From the NCBI GenBank assembly GCA_003194425.1, contig PQXB01000001.1:1112728-1144727 (forward strand): DNA of 32,000 nt, in the 5' to 3' direction. The notes under the pieces are model-generated. The model was not told the origin of the DNA, ran no database searches, and worked only from the letters and a program-made list of their open reading frames with translations. A program made the position numbers and the translations under genes. Source of the DNA: Candidatus Methanophagaceae archaeon. Lineage in GTDB: Archaea; Halobacteriota; Syntropharchaeia; Alkanophagales; Methanospirareceae. Shown piece after piece: positions 549 through 32,000 of the stretch; position 1 is the first letter of the stretch; every line of letters starts with the position of its first letter.

Positions 549-1895
549 ATGGCGAAGAAAATAACCTCAGCGGACCTGGAGGAGCGGCTGGAGAAGCACG
601 AAGTGGTGGAGTTGGATGGGGTAGAGATAAAGGGCGATTTGGAGTTTGAATTGTCCGCGGCGGGCGGTGTGGCTGTTCCTCCTTCAGTGCTTCAGCAGGC
701 ACTGCAGTCCGTCTTGGGCGTGCAGTCGTTGGCGCAGGTGGCTCAGGCAGCACTGCAGTCCGTCTTGGGCGGCGGCGTGCAGGCAGGTACAGGCGAGACA
801 GAGACAGCGAGGAAAATAGAGGCGCAGGAGTTAGCGACGGCGAGGTTTGAAGTTGCGAAGGCGAAGTGGGTGGGGAAGGTAGAAGAGGTTACACTTGGTG
901 CTACTTCGTCGGACGGTGGCACGAGGGAGAAAGTGGTGAAAATAGGGGGCGAGAAATCGCTGCCGTTCTACAACTTCGACCACAAAATGCCGCACGCACC
1001 AGTGATTTCGGTGGACTGCTTTGACATCCCAATTCCGCTTGCGAAGGCGGTGCGGGGGCACTACGAGGATGTGATGCAGGACCCGGGGGAGTGGGCGAAG
1101 AAGAATGTGCGTGAGTTCGGCGCGGATATGGTCACGATTCACCTAATCAGCACCGACCCGCTGATAAACGACACGCCGGCGCGGGAGGCGGCGAAGACTG
1201 TTGAAGAGGTGCTGCAGGCTGTAAAAGTTCCGATTGTCATCGGCGGGTCGGGGAACCCAGAGAAAGACCCCGCGGTCTTGGAGGCTGCTGCGGAGGCTGC
1301 CGAAGGCGAGCGGTGTCTAATCGCGTCTGCGAACTTGAATATGGACTACAAGCGAATAGCGAACGCGGCAAAGGAGCACGGACACACAATTCTCTCGTGG
1401 ACGCAGCTCGACATAAACGCGCAGAAGACGCTGAACCGCTACCTCTTCAAACTCGGCGTGCCACGGGAAGACATCGTGATTGACCCGACGACCGCGGCAC
1501 TGGGCTACGGTCTGGACTACGCGTTCACTAACATCGAGCGGATGCGAATCTCGGCGCTGAAAGGGGACACTGATTTGGCGTTCCCGATTTCCTGCGGCAT
1601 TACGAACGCGTGGGGTGCGAGGGAGGCGTGGATGAAGAATTCGCCGATTGCCGAAGACTCAGACTGGGGACCGGCGGCTTACAGGGGTCCTTTGTACGAA
1701 ATTATGACTGGGCTGACTCTGGGGGTTGCGGGCGGGGACTTGTTTATGATGATGCATCCCAAGGCTGCGGCTGCGGTCAAGCGCGTGACGCAGATGCTGT
1801 TTGGTGCTGCTGCGAAGGAGGGGGCGGAGGCGGGGGCGGAAGAAGAGGGAAGGAAGATAAAAGTAGAGGATTGGGTAAGTTGGGGCGGTCGGTGA
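549..1895 (+). CDS. cdhD: Acetyl-CoA decarbonylase/synthase complex subunit delta (corrinoid Fe-S protein small subunit)
   Basis: 448 aa. Matches my recall of the CdhD family: MAKK N-terminus, GGEKSLPFYNFD, HLISTDP, SWTQLDINAQK, IDPTTAALGYGLDYAFTNIERMR, FMMMHP. Confidence 0.9.
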   Translation: MAKKITSADLEERLEKHEVVELDGVEIKGDLEFELSAAGGVAVPPSVLQQALQSVLGVQSLAQVAQAALQSVLGGGVQAGTGETETARKIEAQELATARFEVAKAKWVGKVEEVTLGATSSDGGTREKVVKIGGEKSLPFYNFDHKMPHAPVISVDCFDIPIPLAKAVRGHYEDVMQDPGEWAKKNVREFGADMVTIHLISTDPLINDTPAREAAKTVEEVLQAVKVPIVIGGSGNPEKDPAVLEAAAEAAEGERCLIASANLNMDYKRIANAAKEHGHTILSWTQLDINAQKTLNRYLFKLGVPREDIVIDPTTAALGYGLDYAFTNIERMRISALKGDTDLAFPISCGITNAWGAREAWMKNSPIAEDSDWGPAAYRGPLYEIMTGLTLGVAGGDLFMMMHPKAAAAVKRVTQMLFGAAAKEGAEAGAEEEGRKIKVEDWVSWGGR

Positions 1896-1945
1896 ATGAA
1901 AAGGTCTTTTAATTCTTGGCGTGAACGGGCAGAGAGAGGTAGAAA

Positions 1946-3523
1946 ATGAGAAGAATTAGAGCCCCGAAAATCGTGCTGACCGCGGACGAGACAATGATGA
2001 GCAGGTACAGGTGGGGGATTTTCGTGGGCTTCTCTACCTGCCTGCCGCAGGGAATTCTGCCTAACTGGTTCTATTTCAGCGTCTTCTCACCGCCAGTGCC
2101 GCGGAAGGACGGCAGGGCGGTCTACGCCGACTTTGGACTGCGGGTCGTTGAAGCCGTGCTTGCAGAGGAATTTGGCGAGGACGAGGTCGCGGTCGTTCAC
2201 CCTCGCGAACTAGAGAAGGTGGCTGGCGGAGGAGAGAGCAGGACGGAAATAATCGGCGTCAGCGGACACGACTTCTTGGGCATTAACCCGCCGAGCTCGG
2301 AGTTCGTTGACCTGCTCAACACCGGACCACCCTACAACCGCGTTAAGTTCTTTGAACTGATGCAGAAGCCTGTAATGCAGGAGAAGACAGTAGTGGCGGG
2401 CGGAAAAGCGGCGTGGCAGTTGGCTGACGAGGAGACGATGGCACGGCTGAACATTGACTACGTCCACCTTGGCGAGGCGGAAATTACGGTTCCTAAACTA
2501 TTTAGGGGCATTCTTGAGGGCGAGCGGTTACCGAAAATAATAAAAGGAAGAGAGTCGAACGCGGACGAGATTCCAAACATTCGCGGCGCCACAATTCACG
2601 GCTTGGTCGAGATTGCACGCGGCTGCGGAAGAGGCTGCTCCTTCTGCACGCCGGGAATGCAACGACTCCGCTTCAAGTCCGTCGAGCACATTTTGAGGGA
2701 TGTGAAGACAAATATTGAGGCGGGACAGCGTTCAATTTTACTACACGCCGAAGATGTCCTGCGTTACGGCGCCAAAGGGCTGGCGCCGGACGAGGAGCGA
2801 GTTTTGAACCTCTTCAGGCGCGTTGCGAGCGTAGAAGGAATTAAAAGCGTTGGCGTGAGCCACGTCGCCCTCGCTACCGTCTACCACAGCCCAAAGCTTC
2901 TCAAAGCGGTCTCCGAAATCTGCTACTCAACGCTCGACCAAGACTGGCTGGGGGCGCAGACAGGAATAGAAACCGGGAGTGCGAGCCTGATTGCGAGGCA
3001 TATGCGAGGAAAAGCGGCGCCCTCGCCGCCTGAGAAGTGGCACGAAATTGTAACCCAGGCTTTCGGAATTCTCGACGACAACAACTGGTTCTGTGCGGCG
3101 ACAATTATAAACGGGCTGCCGGGTGAGACTGTAGAAGATGTAGTCGCAAGCGTCGAGTTGGTGGAGGACTTGAAAGGGATTTCGTCGCTCGTCGTGCCAA
3201 TGAATTTTGTTTCAATGCGTGGCTCGGGTTTAAATTGCGAAGGAACATTTACGATGGCAAAAATGACGCCCGAGCACTGGCAACTCTTTGGCGCCTGCGT
3301 TGACCACGACTTGAAGGTAACCCCTAAACTCTTGAGCAAATACAAAAATAATAACAAGAACTCCAAAGGCGAGTGCGTCAAGACCTGGCTGCTCAGCACA
3401 GCGGCAAAACAAATGGCGAACGCACTGCGGAAATATGTGGGAAAGATGAAGCGGGGCGAGCCGCCGACTGAACGAAGGGAAGTGAGCAAATGGCTCAACC
3501 CTGAAATTCCTGACATTAAATAA
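1946..3523 (+). CDS. Radical SAM domain protein
   Basis: 525 aa. CX3CX2C cluster motif ARGCGRGCSFCTPG (about nt 2623-2646). Shine-Dalgarno-like (SD-like) agagagg lies upstream of the ATG. Confidence 0.8.
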   Translation: MRRIRAPKIVLTADETMMSRYRWGIFVGFSTCLPQGILPNWFYFSVFSPPVPRKDGRAVYADFGLRVVEAVLAEEFGEDEVAVVHPRELEKVAGGGESRTEIIGVSGHDFLGINPPSSEFVDLLNTGPPYNRVKFFELMQKPVMQEKTVVAGGKAAWQLADEETMARLNIDYVHLGEAEITVPKLFRGILEGERLPKIIKGRESNADEIPNIRGATIHGLVEIARGCGRGCSFCTPGMQRLRFKSVEHILRDVKTNIEAGQRSILLHAEDVLRYGAKGLAPDEERVLNLFRRVASVEGIKSVGVSHVALATVYHSPKLLKAVSEICYSTLDQDWLGAQTGIETGSASLIARHMRGKAAPSPPEKWHEIVTQAFGILDDNNWFCAATIINGLPGETVEDVVASVELVEDLKGISSLVVPMNFVSMRGSGLNCEGTFTMAKMTPEHWQLFGACVDHDLKVTPKLLSKYKNNNKNSKGECVKTWLLSTAAKQMANALRKYVGKMKRGEPPTERREVSKWLNPEIPDIK

Positions 3524-3573: not shown

Positions 3574-4593
3574 ATGAAAGTAGTAAAAGGGGGATATTTT
3601 CCGTATTTGCGTCTCGGCAAAATGAACGAACTCTTGAGGGCAATTCCCTTGCAACTCGTCTCGCAAGTGAACGAGTTCTCCGCCCAGAAGTTAGCCGAAA
3701 CTGTCAAAGTAGGACCGACGACTGCCAGCAACTTTATCGCGACACTGAAATCGCTTGGTTTTGTTAAAGGCAGCAGGAGGTTCAGATTTACCGCAGAGGG
3801 GGACAGTTACGCGATTTTTATAAAAAATCAGGCGGCAGGGGCAGCGGCGGAGGAAGAGGCGAAAAAAGTCTTGCGGCAGCAGGTAGAGAAAATCGAGTAT
3901 CTTCAGGCATTTAAGAAAATGCTCGACGAGAAGCGGCGGCTCACGATTTTTGAAATCGGGGAGCAGATTGTCCTGCGGTACGAGAAGAAATGGAAGAGTC
4001 CGCTGACTTTAAAAACTTACGGTGCGGGCGTTGCGAGCGTTCTCGATTTTGCGGGCTTCGGCTTTTACCGACGCGGTCTCTTAAGTCTCGTGAAGAAAGA
4101 AGTAGAGAGCAGGGCAATGCCTGTCCCTTACCTCAGCGCAGAGAAAATGTTCAAAATTCTAAACCTGCTCTCCCCCTCGGGCGCTGACATTCTCTTTCTC
4201 TCGCAGAACCTCAAGACACAAGAAAGACGGCTGAGTCAGGAGCTGGCGTGCTGCAGGACGCTTGGTTTTGTCAAGCACCCGTCCAGAAATTTTTACGCAC
4301 TGACAAGAGAAGGGAAGGCAATAATTTCGCGGTTCAAGAGCGAGGGCGAACGCAGAGCAGAATTTAGGAGACGACTGCTGGCTTCGCCGTACAAAAGGGG
4401 CGCGACCCAACTGCCGCAGGGCGAGAAAATAACCGTAGAGACGGTCGGTAACCTTTTGGAGACAGTGTACCAGAAGAGGTGGTCGGACTTGACGAAGAAG
4501 ACTTACGCGAAGAAATTCCTGAATTGGCTCAAGTTCGCTGGGATTGTGACGAAACTTGAAGGTGAGAAGGGCTACAAAGTGAGCAGAACCTAA
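3574..4593 (+). CDS. Hypothetical protein with four winged-helix-like modules in A-B-A-B order
   Basis: 339 aa, SD gaggag upstream. A modules end in LGFVK...F..T.EG. B modules carry Y(E/Q)K(K/R)W...T.KTY.....FAG. Each type occurs twice. Confidence 0.6.
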   Translation: MKVVKGGYFPYLRLGKMNELLRAIPLQLVSQVNEFSAQKLAETVKVGPTTASNFIATLKSLGFVKGSRRFRFTAEGDSYAIFIKNQAAGAAAEEEAKKVLRQQVEKIEYLQAFKKMLDEKRRLTIFEIGEQIVLRYEKKWKSPLTLKTYGAGVASVLDFAGFGFYRRGLLSLVKKEVESRAMPVPYLSAEKMFKILNLLSPSGADILFLSQNLKTQERRLSQELACCRTLGFVKHPSRNFYALTREGKAIISRFKSEGERRAEFRRRLLASPYKRGATQLPQGEKITVETVGNLLETVYQKRWSDLTKKTYAKKFLNWLKFAGIVTKLEGEKGYKVSRT

Positions 4594-4637
4594 CCTGAAC
4601 CTAACCTAAACCTAACCTAAACCTAACCTAAACCTAC
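4588..4637. repeat. 11-nt tandem repeat (aacctaaccta, about 4.5 copies)
   Basis: Read directly. It starts in the last codons and stop of the 3574..4593 gene and fills the spacer between two convergent genes. Confidence 0.9.
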
Positions 4638-6155: not shown

Positions 6156-8309
6156 TTAATTTAATTTATTTCTCCGGTTTTTATTTTTTCCCTGCTCGGT
6201 TTTTCCCTGCTCGGTTCTGAGCTCGCTGCAGAGCAGAAGAAGCATTCCTACAGACATTAAGAGAACCCCTGCCCAGACGAGCCAAATTAAGGGGACTTTC
6301 TTTACGACGACGACTGCGTCTTTTGGCTGAAGTTTTTCTCCGGCTGCTACGCCTGTAAGAGCGTAGAACATCGCGTCTGAACTGGAGTTTGTGGCGTGCA
6401 TTGAAATGTAGAGGTCTCCTGCGAGGCTGGAAAGAATTAAAGGCTCAGAGACCACGCCGTAGTTTGCGTAGTAAGACATCCACAAGGACTCGGGCTGCTG
6501 GGAGGGGGCAGTCCCTCCACCCTCTCCTCCTTCTCCTCCTTCTCCTCCTTCTCCTCCTTCTCCTCCTTCTCCCTCCTCGCCCCCCGCGTTAACAACAACC
6601 AAATCCAGTTTTAGAGCCGAGTGTTCGGGTCCTGCGAAAGAATGCTTTGGGTAAAAAACGCTTCCTGTGCCTGCGTAGGTCGTGAAATTGTGGAATTCCA
6701 ACCTCGTCCCCAAGACCTCAACAACAGAATCGGGGCTCACGAGAATGTTACCGCTCTCTTCTTCCGCCGCGGAACTGACAAAGACGCCTACTAAAATGAC
6801 GACGACTGCGAGGTGCACGAACGTTTTCCCCCACGCCCTCGTGCTCGTCATTGTGCTCGTCCTCGTGCTCGTCCTCGTGCTCGTCCTCGTGCCCGTGCCC
6901 TTCGTGCCGCTGCGAGAACGAGAAGCGACGGCAACCCCTGCACCGGCAGCGAGGAGCAGCGGAAGTCCGAAGTTCGCGAGTGGGTTCGGCGTTGGCTGCC
7001 CCAACCACGCTAAAACCGCCCCTACGCTCAGCACTGCTCCAAGTAACACCACAAAACTCCTCATTTTCTCCCTGTCCCCTCCCTTGCCACCCCAAGCAGC
7101 GGCGGTGTTGCAGCCCAGCAGAGCCGCGACGAAGGCGAGCGTGAACGGGTAGCACCACTTGTTGTAGAATTCCACGCTCGTGGTCAGTGGGTTCTCGGAG
7201 AAGAAGCCACCGAGAATTGGCGCCGCGTCACCGAGAAAGCAGACGAACAGCAAGAACACGAGCGACCAGAACGCTGCAAAAACCGAGACCGAGTAGAGCG
7301 AAGAAGTGTCGAGGTCAAAATTGTAGAGCGGTCGGTTCGCCCTCGCAGCGAGGTAGAAAAAGTAGAGAACGACGCAGAAGCCAAAGCCCAGCAGCACGGG
7401 TTCGACTGGCGACTCTCCAAACGCGTGCACCGACTCTAACAACCCCCCCCGTGTCAGCGCAGTAGCGAAAATAATCATAAAAAAAGTAGCCAGGAGCAGT
7501 AGTTCTCTCCCCAAATCCTTCCTCCCCGCAGGCAAGTGAAAATACGCAGTGAGAGCGAGCCAGGGCAGCAAAGAAGCCGTCTCCACAGGGTCCCAAGCCC
7601 AGTACCCGCCCCACCCCAGCACTTCGTAAGACCACCACCCGCCGAGAGCGATTCCGAGCGTCAGAAACAGCCACGCCGCGTAAAGAGAAATTTTCAGCGT
7701 CCTTCTTTCCGCCCCCTCTGCCCCTCCTCCTGCTCCCCCTGCTTCCCCTTTTTTCATCCCCGCGAGCGTCAGTGCGAACGCGAAGAAGACAAACGCGTAG
7801 CCCAGAAAAACGACCGGTGGGTGAACGAGCACCCAAAAAGTCTGCAACAGCGGGTTTAACCCCGCTCCTTCTGGCGGTGTAAAAGGCAGAATCTCGAACG
7901 GGCTCTTCAGTAGAACGAGGAGGACCAGAAAAATTAGGAAACTGTCCAAGATTTTGTAAGAAGTTGCACGGTTCTCTGCCCCTGCTCCTACCCTTCTAAA
8001 CCTGTACGCGAAATAAAGCAGGGCAAAGACGAACGCCACAAAGAGCATTGACCCGCTGCTACCGATCCAGGGGTCGCCGAGTTTGTACTGAACCGCCAAG
8101 CTTGAGGAACTGTAGGCGTAAACTTCGCTCAACCAGAAACTGTCCGTCACGAACGCAGTCGTGAGCCTGAAGTAGGACGCAACAATTAGCACGCAAGCCA
8201 GAAAAAAGAGTTCCTGCTTCGTTCTCTCTCTCGCCCTCAAGAAGAGCAGAGCAAAATCAGCCAACAGCAAAACACAAGCCAAAATTAGAAAAAAATCACC
8301 TGTTTCCAT
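6156..8309 (-). CDS. ccmF: Cytochrome c-type biogenesis protein CcmF (haem lyase)
   Basis: 717 aa polytopic protein. WWD motif WGGYWAWDPVE, conserved His contexts VLVHPP, AYFH and LLESVHAF. Carries low-complexity insertions. Confidence 0.9.
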   Translation of the reverse strand: METGDFFLILACVLLLADFALLFLRARERTKQELFFLACVLIVASYFRLTTAFVTDSFWLSEVYAYSSSSLAVQYKLGDPWIGSSGSMLFVAFVFALLYFAYRFRRVGAGAENRATSYKILDSFLIFLVLLVLLKSPFEILPFTPPEGAGLNPLLQTFWVLVHPPVVFLGYAFVFFAFALTLAGMKKGEAGGAGGGAEGAERRTLKISLYAAWLFLTLGIALGGWWSYEVLGWGGYWAWDPVETASLLPWLALTAYFHLPAGRKDLGRELLLLATFFMIIFATALTRGGLLESVHAFGESPVEPVLLGFGFCVVLYFFYLAARANRPLYNFDLDTSSLYSVSVFAAFWSLVFLLFVCFLGDAAPILGGFFSENPLTTSVEFYNKWCYPFTLAFVAALLGCNTAAAWGGKGGDREKMRSFVVLLGAVLSVGAVLAWLGQPTPNPLANFGLPLLLAAGAGVAVASRSRSGTKGTGTRTSTRTSTRTSTMTSTRAWGKTFVHLAVVVILVGVFVSSAAEEESGNILVSPDSVVEVLGTRLEFHNFTTYAGTGSVFYPKHSFAGPEHSALKLDLVVVNAGGEEGEGGEGGEGGEGGEGGEGGGTAPSQQPESLWMSYYANYGVVSEPLILSSLAGDLYISMHATNSSSDAMFYALTGVAAGEKLQPKDAVVVVKKVPLIWLVWAGVLLMSVGMLLLLCSELRTEQGKTEQGKNKNRRNKLN
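6186..6215. repeat. 15-nt x2 tandem repeat in the ccmF 3' end (encodes TEQGK TEQGK)
   Basis: ttttccctgctcggt occurs twice in tandem. Confidence 0.85.
6524..6572. repeat. 9-nt tandem repeat (ctcctcctt x5+) in ccmF, encodes (GEG)n
   Basis: Read directly. In frame on the minus strand. Confidence 0.9.
6841..6900. repeat. 12-nt tandem repeat (gtgctcgtcctc, 3 perfect and 2 variant copies) in ccmF, encodes (TRTS)n
   Basis: Read directly. In frame on the minus strand. Confidence 0.9.
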
Positions 8310-8804: not shown

Positions 8805-8816
8805 CCGCTCTCTCAT

Positions 8817-8852
8817 TCTCCTTCCCCCGCTCCTTCTCCTTCCCCCGCTCCT
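8817..8852. repeat. 18-nt x2 tandem repeat (tctccttcccccgctcct)
   Basis: Lies between the cytochrome stop and the lipoprotein signal peptide. It would encode RRSGGR x2 if the 8858 start is used. Confidence 0.85.
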
Positions 8853-8854
8853 TC

Positions 8855-9754
8855 TCATTCTCCTTCCCCTTCCCCTTCCACTTCTACTTCCCCTTCTCCC
8901 TCTCCCTTGCCCGTCAAAATGCAAGCCTTCAGCGACTTCAAAATGTTCAAAATCGTGGGATATTTCTCCTCCTCTTCCCGCCCAACCCTCGCAGGCACAA
9001 GCACACCTTCTTTCATTTTGTAGCCTTCCTCTTTGTATTTTAGCCCAAACGAGCCGTGGCAGGCGACGCACAAACTCCCTATCTTGTCGCCGTGAATTGA
9101 GTGAGCGTCTCCGAGGTGGCAGGAGTTGCAGTTGGCTGTCTTCGGAATTGTTGGCTTCTTCTCTTTCTCTCCGCCGTGGCACGCCTGGCATTTCACACTC
9201 AAATGGACACGGTGGATTTCGTCGCACGGAATCTCCGCTCCCGCTCCTGCACTCTCGTCGGCAGTCCCGGCAGTCCCGGCAGCCCCGGCTACTGTCCCAC
9301 TTCCGATGTGACAGTCAACGCAGGTCTTCTCGCCGTGTGCAAGCCTTCTGATTTTTTCTCTGTCCACCGCCCCTCCTGTAGTGTAGTCTTTGTCGTGGCA
9401 CTTGCAAGACCCGAGTTTTGACTGCAACGCCTTCTCTGAGAGGAGCGAGACGTGGCACTGCCCGCATTCAGGCACAGGGTGCCACGAGCCGATAAAATTT
9501 TTTGAATTTGGCGGAATTACCTCTTGCACTCCCTCGTTTGCGGTCTCGCCTTTCTCTGTTTCTGCCCCTGCTCCTGCTCCTGCCCCTGCTCCTGCTCCTG
9601 CTCCTGCCCCTGCTCCTGCCCCTGCTCCTACCCCCGTTCCTGCACCTGTTTCTCCTGCACCTGTACCCGTGCTAGTACAGGCACAGAGGGACGCGGCGGC
9701 TGCTGCTGCGACGACTACAGCCGTGACGAAGAACGCAAGGATTTTGATTTTCAT
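8855..9754 (-). CDS. Multihaem cytochrome c, lipobox-bearing, with Gly/Ala tether
   Basis: The listed ORF was trimmed to the ATG at 9754 (MKIKILAFFVTAVVVAAAAAASLCAC). Five CXXCH motifs (CGQCH, CVDCH, CQACH, CNSCH, CVACH) plus one CKCH. Poly-GA linker and (GE)n tail. Confidence 0.8.
   Translation of the reverse strand: MKIKILAFFVTAVVVAAAAAASLCACTSTGTGAGETGAGTGVGAGAGAGAGAGAGAGAGAGAGAETEKGETANEGVQEVIPPNSKNFIGSWHPVPECGQCHVSLLSEKALQSKLGSCKCHDKDYTTGGAVDREKIRRLAHGEKTCVDCHIGSGTVAGAAGTAGTADESAGAGAEIPCDEIHRVHLSVKCQACHGGEKEKKPTIPKTANCNSCHLGDAHSIHGDKIGSLCVACHGSFGLKYKEEGYKMKEGVLVPARVGREEEEKYPTILNILKSLKACILTGKGEGEGEVEVEGEGEGE
9564..9629. repeat. Hexanucleotide repeat (tgctcc/tgcccc) encoding poly(Gly-Ala)
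   Basis: Read directly. In frame in the cytochrome linker. Confidence 0.9.
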
Positions 9755-14491: not shown

Positions 14492-14518
14492 AGAAGTGTT
14501 AGAAGTGTTAGAAGTGTT
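14492..14518. repeat. 9-nt x3 tandem repeat (agaagtgtt)
   Basis: Read directly, 5 nt after the stop of the GT2-like gene. Confidence 0.9.
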
Positions 14519-14811
14519 ACCTGGAGGGAGCAAAATAAAAGGAAATAGGAATTACAACCGACATTGTGGATTCAACCAAATATTACAGGGGCGTGTCAAA
14601 TTAAGGTAAAGCCGATTCCTGCCACCTTTGCTCGTAAAGAAACATTCAGATACGACTCTTCTTTCGGGATTTGACATTTACAGGAATTTAAGTGCAGGCA
14701 TAAAGTCAGTAAATATTTCTCGCTCAAGTCAGTAGAGTTCTACGAGCTCTGCAGTTCAACACCCAACGCCTCGGGCAGTAAATCCCTCTCCTCCGCCTTT
14801 CCCTTGACTTT

Positions 14812-14859
14812 ACCACGAGCCTGACTCACCACAAGCCTGACACACCACAAGCCTGACTA
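14812..14859. repeat. 16-nt x3 tandem repeat (accacaagcctgacNN)
   Basis: Read directly. The last copy contains the acs stop codon (14857-14859). Confidence 0.85.
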
Positions 14860-17141: not shown

Positions 17142-17167
17142 TTTTTTGCTTTAATTTTTTGCTTTAA
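17142..17167. promoter_or_regulatory. 13-nt x2 tandem duplication (ttttttgctttaa) in the acs/pyrI divergent promoter
   Basis: Read directly. The CTTTAAT core of copy 2 lies 20-26 nt upstream of the pyrI ATG, so it is a TATA-box candidate. Confidence 0.4.
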
Positions 17168-17187
17168 TTTACTTTACATTTGCAATT

Positions 17188-24992: not shown

Positions 24993-26249
24993 TCAACGCT
25001 CCCCCTCCTCTCCCCCCTCGCGCAAATACCTCAACCCCAACTCCTTCAGCCTTGCCTTTTTTATGCCCGACCCCGCCACTCCCGCTCCCTCTCCTGCCAC
25101 CGCGTACTTCTCGACAAACTCCTCGAACTCGGTCTTCAAAGAGCGGAAACTTGGACGCTCGGCAGCAGAGAACAGCTCGCTGCCACTCTGCCGCTGGAAG
25201 TCGTATTTCAGCTCAAAATGAACCGCCGACCGCGTCAGCCGCTTCAACTCGTCAAAGTCGAGCGAGTGGTAAATGTGCAGCGGAATTCCCTGCACTTTCA
25301 ACCGCACGACCTTGCCCTCGGGGTTGCTTTCTCGGATGCGACGCTTTAAAGCACTTTTTATGCCCTGCTCGTCGAGACCGCTGCAGACAACCGGCTCCAA
25401 ATCCAGCATTTCCCTCGTCCTTATCCTGTGGAACACGACCTCTCTTTTGTTCTTAGAATTTTCTTCTTCTTTTTCTCGTTCTTCTCGCTCTCGCAGCCTG
25501 ACCTCCAAGAAGCCCTTCTGGTCGTTCGCCTCGCTGAAGCTGAACCGCTCGGTCGAGCCTGCGTAGTAGGCACCTGCTCGCACTCGCGTGGGTCTGTGGA
25601 AATGCCCAAGTGCGATGTAGTCCAAACCAAGACCCGTGAGGTCGTCGATGCTGACCACCTGCTCGTTGAACTCGTGCATCAGGAACGCTGACGCCGACGC
25701 CGCTGCTGGCAGTCCGGCACCGAGAACGCTCGCGTGCAGAAGTGCGACATTAAAACCCTCTCCTACTCCCGCTCCCTCACCCGCACGCAACTTCATTTTC
25801 TTCTTCTCTCTCTCAATGTCGTCGGAGTGTGGAATCGCGTGTATTTTCAGGCGCAGGTCTGGAATTTCAACGACCTCGTACCTGCCCTCGTAAACCAGCC
25901 GAACGCCCGGAATGTGCTCGAAGAGGCTGAGCACGCTGCCCGTCTCCTTCAGGCGTGGCGTCTCGTGGTTGCCGGAAATCGCTACAAACGGAATTCCCGC
26001 CTCACTCAATCTTAGCAACTGCCCGAGAACAAACGAAATAGCACGGTTCGAGGGACGCACCGAATCAAAGAGGTCGCCAGCGTGCATAATAAGATCCGGC
26101 TTCTCTTTCTCCTGCACTGCGAAGTCCACAAACCTCCTGAACGCCTCGTAGGTGTCCACTTCCCGTTGGTTCAGCCCGCTCGCCTCGTCTGTCCTTCGGT
26201 ACGCCGAGTAGCCGATGTGCGTGTCTGCGATGTGAAAAATTTTCATCAT
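24993..26249 (-). CDS. mre11: Mre11/SbcD-family DNA repair nuclease
   Basis: Phosphoesterase motifs IADTH, HAGDLFD, SGNHE, LLHASV, GHFH. Confidence 0.85.
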   Translation of the reverse strand: MMKIFHIADTHIGYSAYRRTDEASGLNQREVDTYEAFRRFVDFAVQEKEKPDLIMHAGDLFDSVRPSNRAISFVLGQLLRLSEAGIPFVAISGNHETPRLKETGSVLSLFEHIPGVRLVYEGRYEVVEIPDLRLKIHAIPHSDDIEREKKKMKLRAGEGAGVGEGFNVALLHASVLGAGLPAAASASAFLMHEFNEQVVSIDDLTGLGLDYIALGHFHRPTRVRAGAYYAGSTERFSFSEANDQKGFLEVRLREREEREKEEENSKNKREVVFHRIRTREMLDLEPVVCSGLDEQGIKSALKRRIRESNPEGKVVRLKVQGIPLHIYHSLDFDELKRLTRSAVHFELKYDFQRQSGSELFSAAERPSFRSLKTEFEEFVEKYAVAGEGAGVAGSGIKKARLKELGLRYLREGGEEGER

Positions 26250-26251: not shown

Positions 26252-26277
26252 AACTTTAATCTTCAACTTTAATCTTC
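26252..26277. promoter_or_regulatory. 13-nt x2 tandem duplication (aactttaatcttc) immediately upstream of mre11
   Basis: Read directly. It shares the CTTTAAT core with the 17142..17167 duplication. Confidence 0.4.
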
Positions 26278-26389
26278 TCCTCTCTTTCCGCTCACTCGCT
26301 CCTTTCCTTTCGCTAACTTCTTCATATTTTTGTCGCCCCGTCACTTAATCTAATTACAGAGACCGTAGACAAAGTGGGAAATCTCCCTT

Positions 26390-27523
26390 TTACCTCTCAA
26401 GCAACACCAAAACCGCTGGCACTATTGTAAGCGCCGCAGCCATGCAGAACAGCACCCCCCCCGCCATCATCGTCCCCATATCTGCCATCACCGGCAGTTG
26501 ACCGAGCGAAAGGCATTTAAAGCCTACCACCGCCGCTAAAGTCGTTATCGTCATTGGATAGAACACGTTCCTGAGCGTATTAACCATTGCATCTTCACGT
26601 TTTTGCGTTCGTAGCTCATATCTAAACCGTTTTGTAACCTGAATCCCGAAATCTATCCCAATGCCCATTATCATCGTCATCACTCCTGATGTCTGCGGCG
26701 TTATTTTGAATCCCACCAGAACAAGCGTCCCGTATGCCCATATAAGACCAAAAACAATGGTTAACAGCGGAATAAGCCCGTATTTAATCGAGGTGAATAC
26801 AATTATGAGAATGAGTATTATCAGAGCAAAGCTGACAAGCGAGGTCTTTCCCATCGTTTCCCCCGCAAGCTCTTGCAACGTTACCTCCTGCACCGGGTCG
26901 CCACTGAGTTCTACTGACACTCCTCGCGGTTTCTTTATATTTATTACCTTTCTCAGTTCTTCAACTGTCTCCTCTGCATCTACCTCCTCTAACAAGTTCA
27001 ATCTTACCACCGTCAGTGCATAATCGTCGCTGATGAAATTTTTCATCCTCTGCTCTGCTGCTTCATTATTTTTCAACACAGACTTCACAGTTCGCAAAGA
27101 AGCTGGAATTCTGCCACCATTTGCTTCTTTTACCACATCCGCAGCACTTTCCGCACCAACGACACCATAAACGAGTTTCGCTCGTTCCGCGAGCAAGTCA
27201 ACGTACCTTAATACCTCAGGGTCGCGGACATCCCGCACCTCGTCCGAGTTCGCATATTTCGGATCTGTCTGCACTGCAATCGTTACGGTGGCAAAACTGC
27301 CTGCAAATTGGTCTGCTATCAGATTAAATGTCTCCACCACTTCCACATCGTCTGGAAGCCAATCCTTCTGCGATGTCCCCGTCGTTTCCATTAGCGAGGC
27401 TTGGTAGCCCGCGAAAAAGGAGAATACAAGAACAACCGCCAGAACCACGACTGCGTGATGCGAGACGAACCTCGCATATTTCTCCAACGCCCACTTTCCC
27501 AACTTACTCAGTTTATCTCGCAT
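26390..27523 (-). CDS. MMPL/RND-superfamily exporter, C-terminal half
   Basis: 377 aa: one TM helix, an extracytoplasmic domain and five TM helices, ending GIGIDFGIQVTKRF. Confidence 0.75.
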   Translation of the reverse strand: MRDKLSKLGKWALEKYARFVSHHAVVVLAVVLVFSFFAGYQASLMETTGTSQKDWLPDDVEVVETFNLIADQFAGSFATVTIAVQTDPKYANSDEVRDVRDPEVLRYVDLLAERAKLVYGVVGAESAADVVKEANGGRIPASLRTVKSVLKNNEAAEQRMKNFISDDYALTVVRLNLLEEVDAEETVEELRKVINIKKPRGVSVELSGDPVQEVTLQELAGETMGKTSLVSFALIILILIIVFTSIKYGLIPLLTIVFGLIWAYGTLVLVGFKITPQTSGVMTMIMGIGIDFGIQVTKRFRYELRTQKREDAMVNTLRNVFYPMTITTLAAVVGFKCLSLGQLPVMADMGTMMAGGVLFCMAAALTIVPAVLVLLER

Positions 27524-27540
27524 TTATTTCCCCTCCCCTC

Positions 27541-28887
27541 CTATTTCTCCTCCCCTCCCCTTTTCCGCACAGCACCTAACCTACCACTCAACCAACCGGC
27601 TAATTCCCTCGCTTCTACTTCCAAACGCTCCTCAAAAACGATAAAGCAGGGGTTTACCAACACCGCAGCGATCCAGCAGAAAAAAATTCCCAAAGCCAGC
27701 GACTGCCCCAGGTGCTGAATCATCGGCATCACAGAGAGCGTCAAAGCGAGGAAAGCCGCAATCGTAGTCGCAGCAGAGCCGAATGTCGACGCTCCAATAT
27801 TTGTAACTGCAACTCGCAACGCTTCCCTCGAACTCTTCCCCGCCTTTCCTTCCTTTCCCTCCTTCCTCTCTTTTCCCTCCTCCCCAGTCTTCCCCGCCTT
27901 TCCTTCCTTTCCCTCCTTCTCTTCCTTCCTCTCCTTCTCCTCCTTCCTCTCCTCTCCCGTCTTCCCCTCCTTACCCCACCGCTCTTCATAGTACCGCGAG
28001 ACCATAAAAATCCCGTATTCAACGCCCAGACCGATGATGACCGCGCCGATCATAACCGTGCTGATGGAGATTGGAATGCCGAGGAAACCCATCGTCCCGA
28101 AGGTCCAGGTAATTCCAAAAATCAGTGGCAGGAAGACGAGAAAGCCCTTTGAGAACGACCGCTCAAGCAGAGCCAGCAGCCCGAAAATAATCGCCGCCGC
28201 CACCGCAGTCGTGAATTTCATATCCTCCCGCATTAACCTCAAGAGCTCAATTATCAGCGGCGCCACGCCCGTTATTTTATACTTCACGCCTGCAGGCTTC
28301 GTAATCGCGTCAACATCGTTCTGTATCATTTCTGTCACCGCCCTAACCTTCTCCTCGCTTAAGCCTGCCAGCGGGCTGACATAAACCAGCATAATGCTGA
28401 AGTCGTCGTTAAAAAAGCTCTCTGCACCCGAACCCGAAGCAGAGGCTAACCGCTTTTTCACCCCTTCTAAATCCGGCGGAACGCCGCCCTCGCCCTGAAA
28501 AAGTGGTGCAACCGACACAACCTTTTCAATTGAAGATTCCGCCTCAAGCCGCTCGTGCAGTTCAACCACCGACGCCACTACCCTCGGGTCTCTGATGTCG
28601 TGCGGGAGGTCTTTTGCTCCTGTTTCGCGATCCAAGCAGACAGCAACAACCAAATACTCCTCGCCTCTGAACTCACTCGCTATTTTATCCTGCAGAACGA
28701 AGACCGGCAAGTCCTGTGGCATCTCCTTCTCTAAGTCTCCCTGAAACCGCAGTTCTGTCGCCCCGTAGCCTAAAAAGACCGTTAGAACCAGCGTCGCCAC
28801 AATCACCTTCTTGTAGTGCCGGCACTGAAACGCAGCCAACTTTGTCAAGCCTCGCTCCAAACTTATCTTCTCTCTTAACCTTGACAT
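27541..28887 (-). CDS. MMPL/RND-superfamily exporter, N-terminal half
   Basis: 448 aa with the same half-transporter topology. GLGVEYGIFMVSRYYEE, followed by a K/E/G-rich insertion. Confidence 0.75.
   Translation of the reverse strand: MSRLREKISLERGLTKLAAFQCRHYKKVIVATLVLTVFLGYGATELRFQGDLEKEMPQDLPVFVLQDKIASEFRGEEYLVVAVCLDRETGAKDLPHDIRDPRVVASVVELHERLEAESSIEKVVSVAPLFQGEGGVPPDLEGVKKRLASASGSGAESFFNDDFSIMLVYVSPLAGLSEEKVRAVTEMIQNDVDAITKPAGVKYKITGVAPLIIELLRLMREDMKFTTAVAAAIIFGLLALLERSFSKGFLVFLPLIFGITWTFGTMGFLGIPISISTVMIGAVIIGLGVEYGIFMVSRYYEERWGKEGKTGEERKEEKERKEEKEGKEGKAGKTGEEGKERKEGKEGKAGKSSREALRVAVTNIGASTFGSAATTIAAFLALTLSVMPMIQHLGQSLALGIFFCWIAAVLVNPCFIVFEERLEVEARELAGWLSGRLGAVRKRGGEEK
27834..27975. 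repeat. Polypyrimidine (plus strand) repeat tract with a 54-nt periodicity
   Basis: tcttccccgcctttccttcctttccctccttc starts at 27834 and again at 27888. Encodes GKEGKAGKTGEE-type repeats. Confidence 0.85.
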
Positions 28888-28931: not shown

Positions 28932-30242
28932 TTACACTTTTTTCATTCTCCTTACGAAGACGAAGGCGAGAGAAAGTGCGAGAAGTGCGAAGAGAGGCGA
29001 GAAACCGGGAACGGGAACCGAGAGCGTTTTGGAAGAACCTCCTGGACCGCTTGGGGTCACTTCCAACCGGATTTGGTCGTCAAAAATATAAACATTCTCG
29101 TCGCCCAAGTCACGGTCGCCCGTGCACCTTATTTCTACGCCCTGCGAATATTCTTTCGGCTCTGCTTTACCGTCGACCTCAAACTCCAGCACCGCCTCTC
29201 CCGTCTCGCCGACCTTCAAATTGCCCACGAAACCGCTCTTAACATCGTAGTCAAACGGGACTTCCGCCTCGTCTGTAATTCGCACACTCACTGATTCCGC
29301 CTCCTCTGAACCCACATTCTTCACCGTTACACGCAGTTTCACGGCTTTCTCCCCCGCGTTTATGCTCGCAGGTTCCGTGCGGTAAGAGACGATTTCAAAA
29401 TCAGGCTTCGGCTCCACCAGTAAGTCCACTGACCGCGTCACCTCGTACTCCTTCCCTCTCGTGTCCTTGTATTTTATCTTGAGGGGGAGGCTGTACTTTT
29501 TCGCTTCTGTGTTGTCTGCGACGTCAACATAAAACGCAGCCTCCTTCGAATCGCCTGAGTTCAGCCTGCCGATGTACGAGCGGTCTGTTCCCGACCACGA
29601 GGGGTTGAAATTAAAATTCGAAATCAATTTCACTTCTACGTCCTTCGCCGCCGCTTCGCCACTGTTCTCTACGAACGCTCTTATTTCCACATCTTCATCG
29701 CCGGGTCTTACGTCCGCGGGGTCTGTTGTTACCGCTCCAATATTTATCATGCCCTCGCCTTCAACATTGAAAGAGATGCCTAACTCCGCTTTTATCGTGT
29801 CTGTAGCCACGTAGCCTTTCGAAGGGTCAAAGTAGTAGCCCCGCCACGAGCAGCTTACGGGGACAGAGTAAACGCCGTTAGGCGCCTCCTCTTTCACCTG
29901 CACATAAACCTTCACCTCTTTCCGAGACCAGGAGTTCAGTGAATTTATGTGAATTACAGTAGCTCCCACGACCGAGACGACCTCTGTGCCTTGAAACGCC
30001 ATTCGAATGTCTCTTGCGTCCATCCCGCCGTTGTTCTTCACTGTCATCGTCACTTCCTTCGTCTCGCCAGGACGCAGATCCGTAGGCTCTACATCCGTTA
30101 TCGTAACCGAAGAGAAGGAGGCATCTGCCGGCGGTGCAAACACGGGCAGAAGCAAAGCCACCATAAGAGCCGTCATAAAAAATACCGCGCCAAGAAGGCA
30201 GACTTCTGGAAATACCGGTTTTACCACTGCATTTTTTACCAT
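28932..30242 (-). CDS. Surface (S-layer-domain/CARDB-repeat, COG1361-like) protein with a PGF-CTERM anchor signal
   Basis: Signal peptide, repeated V.V.N.G-type beta modules, C-terminus VPVPGFSPLFALLALSLAFVFVRRMKKV. Confidence 0.75.
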   Translation of the reverse strand: MVKNAVVKPVFPEVCLLGAVFFMTALMVALLLPVFAPPADASFSSVTITDVEPTDLRPGETKEVTMTVKNNGGMDARDIRMAFQGTEVVSVVGATVIHINSLNSWSRKEVKVYVQVKEEAPNGVYSVPVSCSWRGYYFDPSKGYVATDTIKAELGISFNVEGEGMINIGAVTTDPADVRPGDEDVEIRAFVENSGEAAAKDVEVKLISNFNFNPSWSGTDRSYIGRLNSGDSKEAAFYVDVADNTEAKKYSLPLKIKYKDTRGKEYEVTRSVDLLVEPKPDFEIVSYRTEPASINAGEKAVKLRVTVKNVGSEEAESVSVRITDEAEVPFDYDVKSGFVGNLKVGETGEAVLEFEVDGKAEPKEYSQGVEIRCTGDRDLGDENVYIFDDQIRLEVTPSGPGGSSKTLSVPVPGFSPLFALLALSLAFVFVRRMKKV

Positions 30243-30793
30243 TTCTTACCCCCTCCGTTTGCTAAATCGCTTTCTATTTTTATTTTTATTGAAATCCTCT
30301 CTGACTCTTCGTTTAGTTTCTCCATCTCAACATTCCCAGGCATCGCATTTATCTCGTTCATTATCTTCGAGAAGAGCAGAACCGCGAGGTTCATTTTCCT
30401 GTATTCGTGTAAGAGCACGAGAAAAGTCTCCCTCACTTTTGCATCCTCTATTTTGGACAGACTCGCGGAGAGCAGTTCGATCATTGGCTTTATGTTCTCC
30501 GCGAGAAATCGCTTCAAGAGTTCGCCAAAACTCTCTGTCAGCGAGGTGTTAACCGAATAACGGGTCTCTCTTCCCTCCCTTCTCTCCTCAATCGTCGGTC
30601 CCCGCTTCAATTCCCGCAGACTCCGACTGACCAGTCCCCTGCTGTAGCCCGTGCCTTCTACAATTTCACGCTGCGTTACGGGGCAGGATTTGAAGAGTAA
30701 GAAGCCCCAGACACGCCCCACCGACTCGCCCAGGTCCCACTGCTTCCCTATTTTCGCCAGCGAATCCAACACTTCTTGCATCACTTCGCTCAT
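30236..30793 (-). CDS. GbsR/MarR-like winged-helix transcriptional regulator
   Basis: GRVWGFLLFKSCPVTQREIVEGTGYSRGLVSRSLRELK. Overlaps the downstream gene by 7 nt. Confidence 0.7.
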   Translation of the reverse strand: MSEVMQEVLDSLAKIGKQWDLGESVGRVWGFLLFKSCPVTQREIVEGTGYSRGLVSRSLRELKRGPTIEERREGRETRYSVNTSLTESFGELLKRFLAENIKPMIELLSASLSKIEDAKVRETFLVLLHEYRKMNLAVLLFSKIMNEINAMPGNVEMEKLNEESERISIKIKIESDLANGGGKKW

Positions 30794-30844: not shown

Positions 30845-30852
30845 TTAAATAA
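30845..30852. promoter_or_regulatory. TATA-like box (tttaaata)
   Basis: Lies in the 74-nt AT-rich divergent spacer, 16-23 nt upstream of the MFS ATG, which suggests a leaderless or short-leader mRNA. Confidence 0.3.
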
Positions 30853-30867
30853 AGATTCTTAATTAAG

Positions 30868-32000
30868 ATGAAAAGAGCAAAGAACACGCAACTTGCACAA
30901 GCACTTGCACAAGCACTTGCACAAGCACTTGCACCTACGCCTACGGTTCTACACCCTGCACCCGCGCTTCTGCCTCTGGTTGCGTTGCACGGCTTAATGC
31001 ACATTTTGGCGACGACGCTGCCTGCACTCTCGCCGTTGGTGAAGCAGGAGTTTTGTCTGACGAACACCGCGGTGGGCGTGCTCTCGTTTGCGTTCGCGGC
31101 TGCGATTGGGTTGGGGAGCGTCTTTTCTGGGCTGCTCTCGGACAGGTTTGACGGACTAAGGCTGGTGAGTCTGGGCTTATTCTTTGCCGCCGTTCTCTCT
31201 GCTCTGCTCTTCGTTTCACACGATTTTCTCTCGCTTACCCTCATTTTTGTCGTTATGGGATTCTGCCTCAGTCTTTACCACCCCTCTTCTCTCTCTTACA
31301 TCGCGAAATCCGTAAAGACCAGACGAGGCAGAGCCTTTGGCGTGCACGAGACAGGAGCGAGCCTGGGGCTTGCAGTAACGCCGTTAGTGGCGGGCTTGGT
31401 CTGTCTTTACGCGGGCTGGCGGTTCGTTTACTTGTTTTGGGCGTTTCCCACCGCCTTCTTCGCAATTCTGCTCCTCTCACTCTCACGCTCTCACTCACTC
31501 TCTCACTCACGCTCACTCTCTCACTCTCACTCACTCTCTCACTCTCACTCACTCTCACTCTCACACAACCACAAGCCGACGGAGGAGGGAGGAAGAACAA
31601 AATTAACGGTTTTCCTTCGGCAAATTGCAAGCACGGGCTCGCTGCGGAGGATTTACTTAATTGAGGGGTTGTTTGGGTTTGTCGTGGGCGGGTCGCTGAC
31701 TTTCATTCCGATTTTCTTTAACGAGGCGCTGGGGGTGAGCCCCGCGCTTGCGGTGGTGCTGACCTGCGTCTTTACAGCAGGCGGAGCGGTCGGGAAATTT
31801 GCAGGTGGGCATTTCTCGGACCTCGTGGGCGAGCGGCGGGTGATGGCTTTTGGCTTTTTCCTGACCGCTCCGTTCTTCTTCGTCGTGCCGTTCCTGCCGC
31901 TGTTCGGGGCGGTTCTGGCGTTGGCACTCGCGGGCTTGATTTTCCCGACCGTTCTGCCTGCGATAATTTCAAGGATAAGCAAGGAAGTCCCGCGGTCGAG
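30868..32000 (+). CDS. MFS transporter (3' end beyond the window)
   Basis: Absent from the ORF track because there is no stop in the window. I translated the frame by hand and it stays open from ATG 30868 to 32000. MFS motif A GLLSDRFDGLRLV. Repeats AQALAQALAQALA and SHSLSHS... are present. Confidence 0.8.
   Translation, partial: MKRAKNTQLAQALAQALAQALAPTPTVLHPAPALLPLVALHGLMHILATTLPALSPLVKQEFCLTNTAVGVLSFAFAAAIGLGSVFSGLLSDRFDGLRLVSLGLFFAAVLSALLFVSHDFLSLTLIFVVMGFCLSLYHPSSLSYIAKSVKTRRGRAFGVHETGASLGLAVTPLVAGLVCLYAGWRFVYLFWAFPTAFFAILLLSLSRSHSLSHSRSLSHSHSLSHSHSLSLSHNHKPTEEGGRTKLTVFLRQIASTGSLRRIYLIEGLFGFVVGGSLTFIPIFFNEALGVSPALAVVLTCVFTAGGAVGKFAGGHFSDLVGERRVMAFGFFLTAPFFFVVPFLPLFGAVLALALAGLIFPTVLPAIISRISKEVPRS
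30891..30934. repeat. 12-nt tandem repeat (acttgcacaagc, 3 copies plus a partial) in the MFS 5' end
   Basis: Read directly, in frame. Confidence 0.9.
31474..31565. repeat. ctcactctc-type microsatellite of about 90 nt in the MFS central loop
   Basis: Encodes SLSRSHSLSHSRSLSHSHSLSHSHSLSLSH in frame. Confidence 0.9.

Follow-up and report, generated by a model that had tools for sequence, protein, structure and literature searches.

The 32,000-nucleotide (nt) stretch analyzed here, called the window below, comes from a Candidatus Methanophagaceae archaeon (GenBank assembly GCA_003194425.1, contig PQXB01000001.1, positions 1,112,728 to 1,144,727, forward strand). It contains 28 genes interleaved on both strands, and many of them carry short tandem repeats that insert low-complexity peptides into conserved proteins. 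The genes include cdhD, a radical-SAM enzyme, a NapC-type cytochrome, ccmF, a small multihaem cytochrome, a surface protein and a salactin homologue. They are followed by a coiled-coil protein, a GT2 glycosyltransferase, acetyl-CoA synthetase (acs), pyrI, fen1, ribosomal proteins L11 and L1, geranylgeranyl reductase (GGR), a LysE exporter, a flavin reductase and an Mre11-like phosphoesterase. A split MMPL transporter, a CARDB/S-layer-type protein and an MFS transporter (plus strand, from 30868) complete the list. A first-pass annotation, made from the letters alone, had identified these genes essentially correctly, and all identities agree with Pfam.

The window proteins match exactly the records PXF51816-PXF51843 (locus tags C4B55_), which lie on one contig of 1,187,124 bp in the GB37 genome. 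This genome has 4-5 contigs, a size of about 1.4-1.5 Mb, and a completeness estimate of 92-94%. From the GC content, the locus-tag prefix, and the contig size, we infer that the source is the species of anaerobic methanotrophic archaea of group 1a (ANME-1a) represented by the GB37 (G37) enrichment genome and the metagenome-assembled genome (MAG) ex4572-4. Among the Guaymas ANME-1a enrichments of Krukenberg et al. (2018), G37 has 1.40 Mb in 5 scaffolds at 52% GC, and G60 (locus tags C4B56_) has 1.81 Mb in 38 scaffolds at 46% GC. The G37 genome is from a 37 °C enrichment, and the same species has also been binned from a 50-80 °C mat. The window has 52% GC, versus 42-50% in ANME-1 relatives. Its proteins are 82% (L1), 74% (L11), and 66% (Fen1) identical to those of mainstream ANME-1, and 60%, 64%, and 54% identical to those of the ANME-1c species Ca. 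Methanospirare jalkutatii. The Fen1-L11-L1 gene order is common to all three. Given the 1.19-Mb contig, the ANME-1 synteny, and the graded identity to relatives, the window is an ordinary cellular chromosome and not an element like the Borgs, the repeat-rich extrachromosomal elements of Methanoperedens. The proposal that chromosomal housekeeping genes are the targets is thus borne out.

We called arrays with Tandem Repeats Finder (TRF) and merged them, using score cut-offs of at least 30, 50, and 80. The window holds 57, 24, and 14 arrays at these cut-offs. Control windows in which the codons of each gene were shuffled gave 7.7, 0.32, and 0. Shuffling the codons removes the signal, and therefore the excess is not due to codon usage or amino acid composition. 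Because purine-only tracts can mimic periodicity, we also shuffled the bases within each array, 200 times per array. Twenty-one of the 24 arrays scored above all of their shuffles. Periodicity is marginal at 8810-8905 (1 of 200 shuffles as high) and at 27813-27972 (5 of 200). Strong arrays occur in 10 of the 28 genes, 6 of which encode membrane or extracellular proteins, and at least a weak array occurs in 21. The arrays are mostly imperfect, with match percentages mostly of 63-97% (full range, 63-100%). Perfect arrays of at least three units number five at a length of at least 30 nt and one at a length of at least 50 nt (6523-6572). TRF reproduced nearly all of the arrays listed in the first-pass annotation (ccmF, cytochrome, surface protein, coiled-coil, acs, pyrI, fen1, LysE, and MFS).

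Strains were compared by means of same-species assemblies that are 96-99% identical (L001, L002, L014, L015, L100-L103, and P0121-P0123). They derive from ENA, JGI, NCBI, and Logan samples, and copy numbers were read from the assemblies. Length changes below are in nt.

Upstream of cdhD, the 16-nt unit CCTCCGCTTCGCTCTA (470-485, plus strand) is single-copy in the window and tandemly duplicated in the alignment of L100 and L102. This change, which is not a multiple of 3, alters the C-terminal residues of a small membrane-protein gene. The N-terminal linker of cdhD itself (699-771, plus strand) contains a perfect 22-nt repeat with 51-nt spacing that creates an in-frame 17-residue duplication (ALQSVLG...). 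The Pfam CdhD domain begins at residue 113, after this linker. The repeat had been placed at 699-720 and 750-771, which is exact. The other perfect repeat of the first-pass annotation, with 60-nt spacing in the surface-protein gene, is also exact (listed there as 20 nt, from 9951 and 10011; 21 nt here, at 9950-9970 and 10010-10030). An intergenic array of 11 nt x4.5 (AACCTAACCTA, 4587-4636) begins at the stop of a helix-turn-helix gene, and the short-read contig L096 ends in it.

The ccmF gene, on the minus strand, has an array in the region of the C-terminal tail (6185-6216, 15 nt x2.1, encoding TEQGK x2). It also has a 9 nt x6.9 array encoding (GGE)n (6515-6578), which includes the perfect array named above, and a 12 nt x5 array encoding (TRTS)n (6837-6898). 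Neither of these two is found in orthologues. In the multihaem cytochrome gene, also on the minus strand, a 12 nt x7.2 array (9562-9648) encodes (GA)n near the N terminus, at residues 18-46 of 281, and is longer by 18 or 12 in other strains. An AGT-type array (9259-9289, 9 nt x3.4) is longer by 9 in L014. At the 3' end of this gene, a purine-rich array (8810-8905, 18 nt x5.3) spans the C terminus (GEGEGEVEVEGEGEGE), the stop codon, and the spacer. Between strains its genic part changes by +12, and its intergenic part by -13 or +5. Both lipoprotein genes of the cytochrome island had been said to carry repeats; one has strong arrays, and the other has only a 9-nt x2 repeat.

In the surface-protein gene (plus strand), a 21 nt x4.2 array (9950-10045) encodes a T/P/S/A-rich linker from a pyrimidine-rich sense strand and is shorter by 18 or 33 in other strains. 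The same gene has an E/G-rich purine tract at 11007-11089 that is of low complexity and not significantly periodic. The coiled-coil gene (plus strand) has a 12 nt x5.8 array encoding (EQAV)n (12520-12617; -12 or +6 in other strains). Intergenic arrays follow at 14492-14519 (9 nt x3.1; +9 or +12 in other strains), at 14812-14858 (16 nt x2.9; +4), and at 17141-17170 (13 nt x2.3), where copy changes between strains are not multiples of 3.

The acs gene (minus strand) has two insertions. The first (16749-16889) is 141 nt long, with periods of 9, 18, 27, and 54 nt, and encodes (EGK/EGE/KVE)n at residues 79-125; it varies by -81, -42, -24, and +3. The second (16170-16232, 18 nt x3.5) encodes GEDSGEGE..., with the array at residues 298-318, and varies by +12, +6, and -12. 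In pyrI (plus strand), a 12 nt x2.8 array (17298-17331) encodes (TRTS)n in a loop of the allosteric domain, with 2, 3, or 4 units depending on the strain. The near-identical 12-nt units of this array and of the ccmF (TRTS)n array are in different rotations and have a 13-nt word in common (AGGACGAGCACAA). In fen1 (minus strand), a 15 nt x4.1 array (18128-18185) encodes (TQKQQ)n right after the H3TH motif.

Compared with the structure of the Thermoplasma enzyme, GGR (20953-21033, minus strand) has two short loop insertions of low complexity, VGTSEGGAG and STEAGRSAEA, neither of them tandem. The LysE-family exporter gene (minus strand) has an 18 nt x2.9 array encoding ERENEREWEKEREREGER (21729-21783), longer by 18 in L014. 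In the flavin reductase gene (22951-23517), all other strains have 12 additional nt (GTTAGAAGGGGT) at 23421 and encode 192 residues, versus 188 in the window. The window version may be the contracted state of a two-copy repeat; TRF calls no repeat there. Adjoining intergenic arrays of 13 nt x2 and 22 nt x1.9 occupy 26252-26318. In the N-half gene of the MMPL transporter (minus strand), a 17 nt x2 array straddles the stop codon (27525-27558). A degenerate 160-nt array (27813-27972) encodes (KEG/KEE/RKE)n at residues 306-358 and is shorter by 45 in L014. Its periods are 9, 18, and 27 nt; the 54-nt period once attributed to this exporter belongs to acs. The MFS gene (plus strand) has a perfect 12 nt x3.7 array encoding (LAQA)n at the N terminus (30891-30934), where a short-read contig ends. 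In mid-protein it has a 91-nt array of 18 nt x5.1 encoding LSHS-type repeats from a pyrimidine-rich sense strand (31474-31564).

The unit lengths follow the reading frame. At a score of at least 30, the unit is divisible by 3 in 36 of 42 genic versus 6 of 15 intergenic arrays of the window. At a score of at least 50, we added out-of-sample flanks (18.5 kb of chromosome from another strain of the same species). The counts are then 33 of 34 genic versus 7 of 18 intergenic arrays (Fisher p=5.3e-6). The intergenic fraction, 39%, does not differ significantly from the chance value of 1/3 (binomial p=0.62). The sole genic exception at the higher score is the 17-nt array that straddles the MMPL stop codon. 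These counts cover about 50 kb. Array density is 1.71 per kb in intergenic DNA versus 0.63 per kb in genes, a 2.7-fold difference. The genic value is thus near one third of the intergenic value, the share expected to be in frame by chance, which fits a reading-frame filter.

Copy-number differences between strains obey the same rule. Inside genes they are multiples of 3, while spacers show changes of -13, +2, +4, and +5. Frame-breaking variants occur at the 3' ends of genes only, namely, the 16-nt unit at 470-485 and, where the GT2 gene ends (14476), an insertion of 22 nt. These two variants show that the process also makes duplications of other lengths in coding DNA, and such duplications do not persist where they would destroy a protein. 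The multiple-of-3 changes inside genes rule out contingency (phase-variable) loci. In genomes generally, repeats within coding sequence favor units that are multiples of 3 (PMC6749651). The frame bias alone is therefore unremarkable, and what is unusual here is the density of the arrays, their recency, and their housekeeping targets.

ANME-1 orthologues of Acs, Fen1, and CcmF with 64-73% BLASTP identity lack the insertions. Acs has 755 residues in the window versus 679-713 in the nearest other ANME-1 orthologues, which are 71-73% identical by BLASTP and about 80% identical over aligned columns. The extra residues are a 9-residue acidic N-terminal insertion and repeat blocks at about 79-125 and 290-317, missing in every orthologue. 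In place of the (TQKQQ)n of Fen1, relatives have ordinary sequence. CcmF has 717 residues versus 644-658, with four insertions that are absent at 64% BLASTP identity. Two ANME-1c CcmF orthologues contain unrelated repeats in one same loop; the first carries GGGGSGGGGGGSGG, and the second carries NER x3 and ANYAGA x2. This loop reads GGAGGGA in the window, and the repeats of Ca. Methanospirare jalkutatii (P0322) and Ca. Methanoxibalbensis ujae (P0348) are their own. Among the orthologues compared, no insertion is conserved across lineages, and we found no sign that the insertions are old conserved features. Their absence from orthologues, together with the unrelated ANME-1c repeats in the same CcmF loop, shows that the insertions are lineage specific and recur independently at permissive sites.

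Within the species, arrays make up about 7-8% of aligned bases yet contain 42 of the 59 indels between strains. The density of single-nucleotide polymorphisms (SNPs) is 17-39 per kb inside arrays versus 3-8 per kb outside. Outside its insertions, Acs is identical in the strains aligned, while both insertions vary in length. In pyrI there are two substitutions outside the array, and both adjoin it. Fen1 occurs in versions of 337, 342, 345, 346, and 347 residues, and CcmF in versions of 698, 704, 710, and 717. Copy number thus differs between strains in whole units. A winged helix-turn-helix regulator (DUF7343, 30236-30793) likewise occurs in versions of 177, 181, 185, 186, 190, and 221 residues across strains. 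In GCA_029935835.1, ccmF (L101 15580-17779) is called as two open reading frames of 186 and 543 residues, for which a frameshift, masked sequence, or misassembly may be responsible. Short-read Logan contigs (L003, L004, and L096-L099) end at 4587-4636, 16749-16889, 18128-18185, 27813-27972, and 30891-30934. Since these contig ends coincide with arrays, the arrays fragment automatic assemblies.

We compared the composition of arrays with that of the rest of the coding sequence. On the sense strand, purines make up 76% of array bases versus 56% elsewhere, and T makes up 7% versus 23%. Both A (32% versus 24%) and G (44% versus 32%) are raised, G more than A. The encoded peptides are enriched in Q, H, E, G, T, and K, contain no C, F, I, or Y, and have almost no W; the MFS frame was off by one base in this run, which slightly affects H, L, S, and A. 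The sense strand is purine rich in 14 genic arrays and pyrimidine rich in 2, regardless of gene direction, and intergenic arrays are mixed. A codon made of purines alone can specify only K, R, E, or G, and no frame of an all-purine or all-pyrimidine tract contains a stop codon; both points are consequences of the genetic code. Arrays of purines or pyrimidines are the least harmful kind. Certain peptide types turn up more than once: TRTS is encoded by both ccmF and pyrI, and E/G/K peptides are encoded by acs, MMPL, ccmF, and the surface-protein gene. An exchange of units between loci by copying and pasting was considered and rejected, because about 20 shared words of at least 10 nt were observed versus about 25 in composition-matched shuffles.

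Judged by AlphaFold2 confidence, the genic repeats are predicted to encode disordered regions. For Acs, the predicted local distance difference test score (pLDDT) stays below 50 over a long segment only at residues 82-120 and 294-316; both segments lie within the insertions and have no secondary structure. The Fen1 model is confident throughout except at the repeat, where the pLDDT falls to about 50. In alignments with solved structures of Acs, PyrI (Sulfolobus), FEN-1, and GGR (Thermoplasma), the insertions fall in gaps between conserved blocks, at loop positions. The gaps lie at Salmonella Acs residues 53/67 and 222/226, and after the H3TH motif in Archaeoglobus FEN-1. A folded repeat domain (PKD, TPR, or collagen-like) was also considered and rejected, since no Pfam family covers the repeat segments, whose units of 3-18 residues are predicted to be unstructured.

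The repeat richness extends beyond the window. Two flanking stretches on a 260-kb contig of the same species hold 13 arrays in 9.7 kb and 15 in 8.7 kb, with in-frame arrays in genes for a substrate-binding protein, purD, pyrB/OTCase, cdhC, Fae-Hps, and an ATP-grasp enzyme. Window and flanks together (50.5 kb) have 10.3 arrays per 10 kb. Across this species the density is 7.5-10.8 arrays per 10 kb, or 4.9-6.5% of bases. In 78 other archaeal Fen1 neighborhoods (1.17 Mb), the median is 0, the mean 0.58, and the 95th percentile 2.0 per 10 kb. Other ANME-1 contigs, some from the related sample accession series, have 0-1 arrays per 10 kb. The top background locus is that of Ca. Methanoxibalbensis ujae, with 7.3 per 10 kb, mostly short two-copy arrays. 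M. jalkutatii reaches 2.8 per 10 kb, and one of its arrays encodes an in-frame (AEQ/AER)n in histidinol dehydrogenase. Thus, ANME-1c shows a milder version of the repeat richness. A Fen1 scan of genome contigs gave no same-species representative among the matches listed, the best being 64% identical. Thermophily was considered as a driver and set aside as unproven: the IVYWREL temperature proxy is far too noisy on these samples, the source is a 37 °C enrichment, and the thermophilic ANME-1c is only moderately repeat rich.

We suggest that tandem duplication and slippage proceed at a high rate in this lineage and that selection screens their products for reading frame, for hydrophilic peptides, and for placement in loops, and we put the probability of this reading at about three in four. 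Short tandem duplications of 9-54 nt would arise at an unusually high rate anywhere in the DNA, likely through slipped-strand mispairing or template switching as the DNA is replicated or repaired. Existing arrays would go on gaining and losing whole units. Selection would remove most variants, so that inside genes only multiple-of-3 copy changes survive, save at the extreme 3' end. The surviving arrays would encode hydrophilic purine-codon peptides (E, G, K, T, Q, and R) and sit in surface loops, linkers, or termini. As the outcome, conserved enzymes and transporters would carry lineage-specific, disordered loops of variable copy number. The whole-unit changes, together with the reported slippage of archaeal PolB and PolD in vitro (PMC4134008), point to slippage as the mechanism. 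We favor a raised mutation rate over relaxed selection as the cause, and the repeat peptides are probably near-neutral passengers. The first-pass annotation had proposed just such an indiscriminate generation of repeats followed by reading-frame selection, and its proposal fits every test run.

Several points weigh against this reading. Genic array density is about what a frame filter would give by itself. At 11007-11089 the purine sequence is of low complexity and holds no significant tandem repeat (22 of 200 shuffles scored as high). Assemblers can collapse repeats, and arrays of 141-160 nt are the most exposed. The roughly 6-fold excess of SNPs inside arrays may come in part from ambiguous alignment of units. 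The examined 50.5 kb is a small part of a genome of about 1.4-1.5 Mb. Finally, the sense-strand purine bias and the recurrent peptides could reflect positive retention of useful peptides instead.

In that last scenario, which we consider unlikely, the peptides are adaptive disordered regions that might serve as polyampholyte entropic bristles for solubility, as tunable linkers, as binding or modification sites, or in the strain-level tuning of surface and transport proteins. A useful role of this kind has been proposed for the amino acid repeats of Borgs. The strongly biased amino acid repertoire, the 14-to-2 excess of purine-rich sense strands, and the recurrence of peptide types are in its favor. 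So are the membrane or extracellular products of 6 of the 10 array-bearing genes, a genic density no lower than the frame filter alone predicts, and the unrelated insertions in one CcmF loop of ANME-1c. However, noncoding arrays are denser and have unit lengths at chance, and a composition of K, R, E, and G follows from the DNA when codons are all purine. The word GCAGGGGCAGG occurs in both the cytochrome (GA)n array and the coiled-coil array, where it is read in different frames, and words are shared between arrays no more than composition predicts. Moreover, copy number drifts between strains whose proteins are otherwise near identical, and no insertion was seen conserved across lineages. 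A broader proposal goes further: GB37 and its relatives, and to a lesser degree ANME-1c, would have a cellular repeat-generating activity of the same machinery type as that behind Borg repeats, the loops would be used functionally, and the trait would be heritable and possibly adaptive. We regard this as doubtful. The activity could be an altered replication or repair component; for this idea, one can cite the variable (TQKQQ)n of Fen1 itself and the low-complexity insertions of the Mre11-like protein. Yeast without the Fen1 homologue Rad27 accumulates duplications between short direct repeats.

Other readings concern the nature of the DNA and of the signal. The window could be a giant Borg-like extrachromosomal element of an ANME-1 host with captured housekeeping genes, given that Borgs carry translation and energy-metabolism genes and genome-wide short repeats (PMC9879509; bioRxiv 10.64898/2026.05.22.727314). 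A repeat-free ANME-1 with a 71%-identical acs is also present in a sample of the same accession series. Yet the exact proteins lie on a 1.19-Mb chromosomal contig, on which basis we reject a Borg-like element. The genes are interleaved on both strands, unlike those of Borg replichores, the GC content is above that of relatives and not below, and the gene order and graded identities are those of an ANME-1 organism, all of which makes this origin highly improbable. We judge it just as improbable that the repeats, or their copy-number differences, are artefacts of assembly or sequencing. Short-read contigs do break at arrays, and the Borg study found unit numbers often wrong in automatic assemblies (PMC9879509). 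However, the same arrays stand at the same positions in at least 8 independent assemblies from ENA, JGI, NCBI, and Logan, whose contig names differ in format; this is an assembly-based answer to the question of artefacts. Whole-unit variants are accompanied by flanking SNPs, and all reading frames remain open. The variable arrays of pyrI (34 nt) and fen1 (58 nt) are far below short-read length, which typically far exceeds 34-58 nt. A purely compositional origin, that is, purine loading of coding strands with no true duplication, draws on the 56% purine content of coding strands and on the average TRF scores of 40-77 for shuffled purine tracts. The tract at 11007-11089 does not exceed its shuffles, and two more arrays are marginal. 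This reading is already largely refuted, and we leave it only a slightly better chance than the two before it. Against it stand the results of both kinds of shuffling, the whole-unit strain differences, and the many nonpurine arrays, such as (TQKQQ)n, (LAQA)n, (TRTS)n, and the intergenic 11-, 13-, and 16-mers.

Some features of the neighborhood deserve mention for themselves. The salactin homologue (PF25229, E=1e-92; FtsB/FtsA in NCBI records) forms an apparent operon with the coiled-coil and GT2 genes at 11274-14487. Salactin was described in haloarchaea, and an ANME-1 homologue may interest students of the archaeal cytoskeleton. A pattern scan of contigs, one genome per species, gave no relative. 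The MMPL/RND-type transporter at 26390-28887 is split into two adjoining half-size genes (448 and 377 residues). The Mre11-like phosphoesterase (24993-26249) has no rad50, herA, or nurA gene adjoining it; it has several low-complexity segments and aligns to solved Mre11 structures over the N-terminal nuclease domain only. Toxin-antitoxin-type genes (DUF433/DUF5615, VapB/ParE-like, and HicB-like) lie beside mre11 and upstream of cdhD in some strains (L014 3203-3800; L103 15928-16728; L101 9161-9494; L102 284-460), not at the matching window sites. The NCBI MAG with accessions MHC1577xxx (P0001, P0364, and P0376) belongs to the present species but is labeled Candidatus Methanospirareceae, the family of ANME-1c, and its proteins are 98-100% identical to those of GB37/ex4572-4 (Methanophagaceae). 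The ribosomal proteins of the window, too, are nearer to mainstream ANME-1 than to M. jalkutatii. The label looks inconsistent. In a search for expression data, GB37 accessions were not found in the supplements of PMC9012536.

Among known systems, the Borgs offer the closest likeness. Borg repeats, defined as perfect arrays of at least 3 units and at least 50 nt, average 46 per 829 kb, or 0.62% of bases; all genic units are divisible by 3, as are 14-38% of intergenic units, and the Methanoperedens hosts were reported to have almost none (Schoelmerich et al. 2023, PLoS Biol, PMC9879509). As in Borgs, short tandem repeats here pervade both genes and spacers, with multiple-of-3 units in genes and mostly other lengths between them. 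In both, they are missing from homologues and vary in copy number among close relatives. On the coding strand T is depleted, with a gain in purines here and in A in Borgs; disorder-promoting E, K, and T are encoded, and C and F are not. Multihaem cytochromes and surface proteins are among the targets, and the host groups are anaerobic methane oxidizers. However, Borgs are linear and low in GC, with one coding strand per replichore, in contrast to a cellular chromosome with genes on both strands and GC above that of relatives. The arrays here are mostly imperfect, and only the one at 6523-6572 fits the Borg definition, which gives 0.03 per kb in 32 kb (n=1) versus 0.055 per kb in Borgs. The enrichment is in G and A here and in A in Borgs, and here core cytoplasmic enzymes are also hit (Acs, Fen1, PyrI, PurD, and Fae-Hps).

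Low-complexity insertions reportedly occur across the proteome, housekeeping proteins included, of Plasmodium falciparum (Pizzi & Frontali 2001; Zilversmit et al. 2010). They are attributed to slippage and unequal recombination under weak selection, with a composition set by the nucleotide bias of the genome. Fast-evolving, repeat-derived disordered segments in loops of conserved proteins, as in that parasite, are seen here over about 50 kb. Plasmodium, however, is an extremely AT-rich eukaryote with Asn/Lys tracts, and the present organism is an archaeon of 52% GC and about 1.4-1.5 Mb with E/G/K/T/Q tracts. Coding minisatellites, or variable-number tandem repeats (VNTRs), resemble these arrays in their in-frame units, strain polymorphism, and slippage origin. 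They differ in being limited to a few mainly surface or antigenic loci per genome, whereas here there are about 10 arrays per 10 kb, in 10 of 28 genes including housekeeping ones. Most prokaryotes have fewer than 4 "satellites" per Mb (Subirana & Messeguer 2019, PMC6749651). The present arrays also share with bacterial contingency loci the presence of hypermutable tracts inside genes. In those loci, units of 1-8 nt change copy number, shift the frame, and switch genes on and off. Here, in contrast, the frame is kept, and other changes occur in spacers or at gene 3' ends only. We found no mention of this feature in the ANME-1 literature searched, an incomplete full-text coverage that included papers on the GB37 genome, ANME-1c, comparative genomics, and the 2026 diversification work. 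As far as we found, the pattern is known from Borg elements, with no earlier report for a cellular archaeal chromosome.

These arrays have practical consequences. They break short-read assemblies and inflate apparent protein divergence, they are usable as VNTR-type markers for ANME-1 strain typing, and they are relevant when ANME-1 enzymes are expressed in other hosts. G37 is available as a long-term enrichment culture, and its metagenomes and transcriptomes are published; one could use it to measure how fast repeats mutate, how disordered regions arise in enzymes, and how these affect fitness. A Borg-like signature on a cellular ANME chromosome implies that ordinary archaeal replication and repair can produce such repeats. 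This bears on whether the Borg or its host makes the Borg repeats, and it cautions that repeats alone should not be used to assign contigs to Borg-like elements. If the proposal of a cellular repeat-generating activity were true, repeat "decoration" would be a genome-wide trait of some methane-oxidizing archaea and not a signature of extrachromosomal elements.

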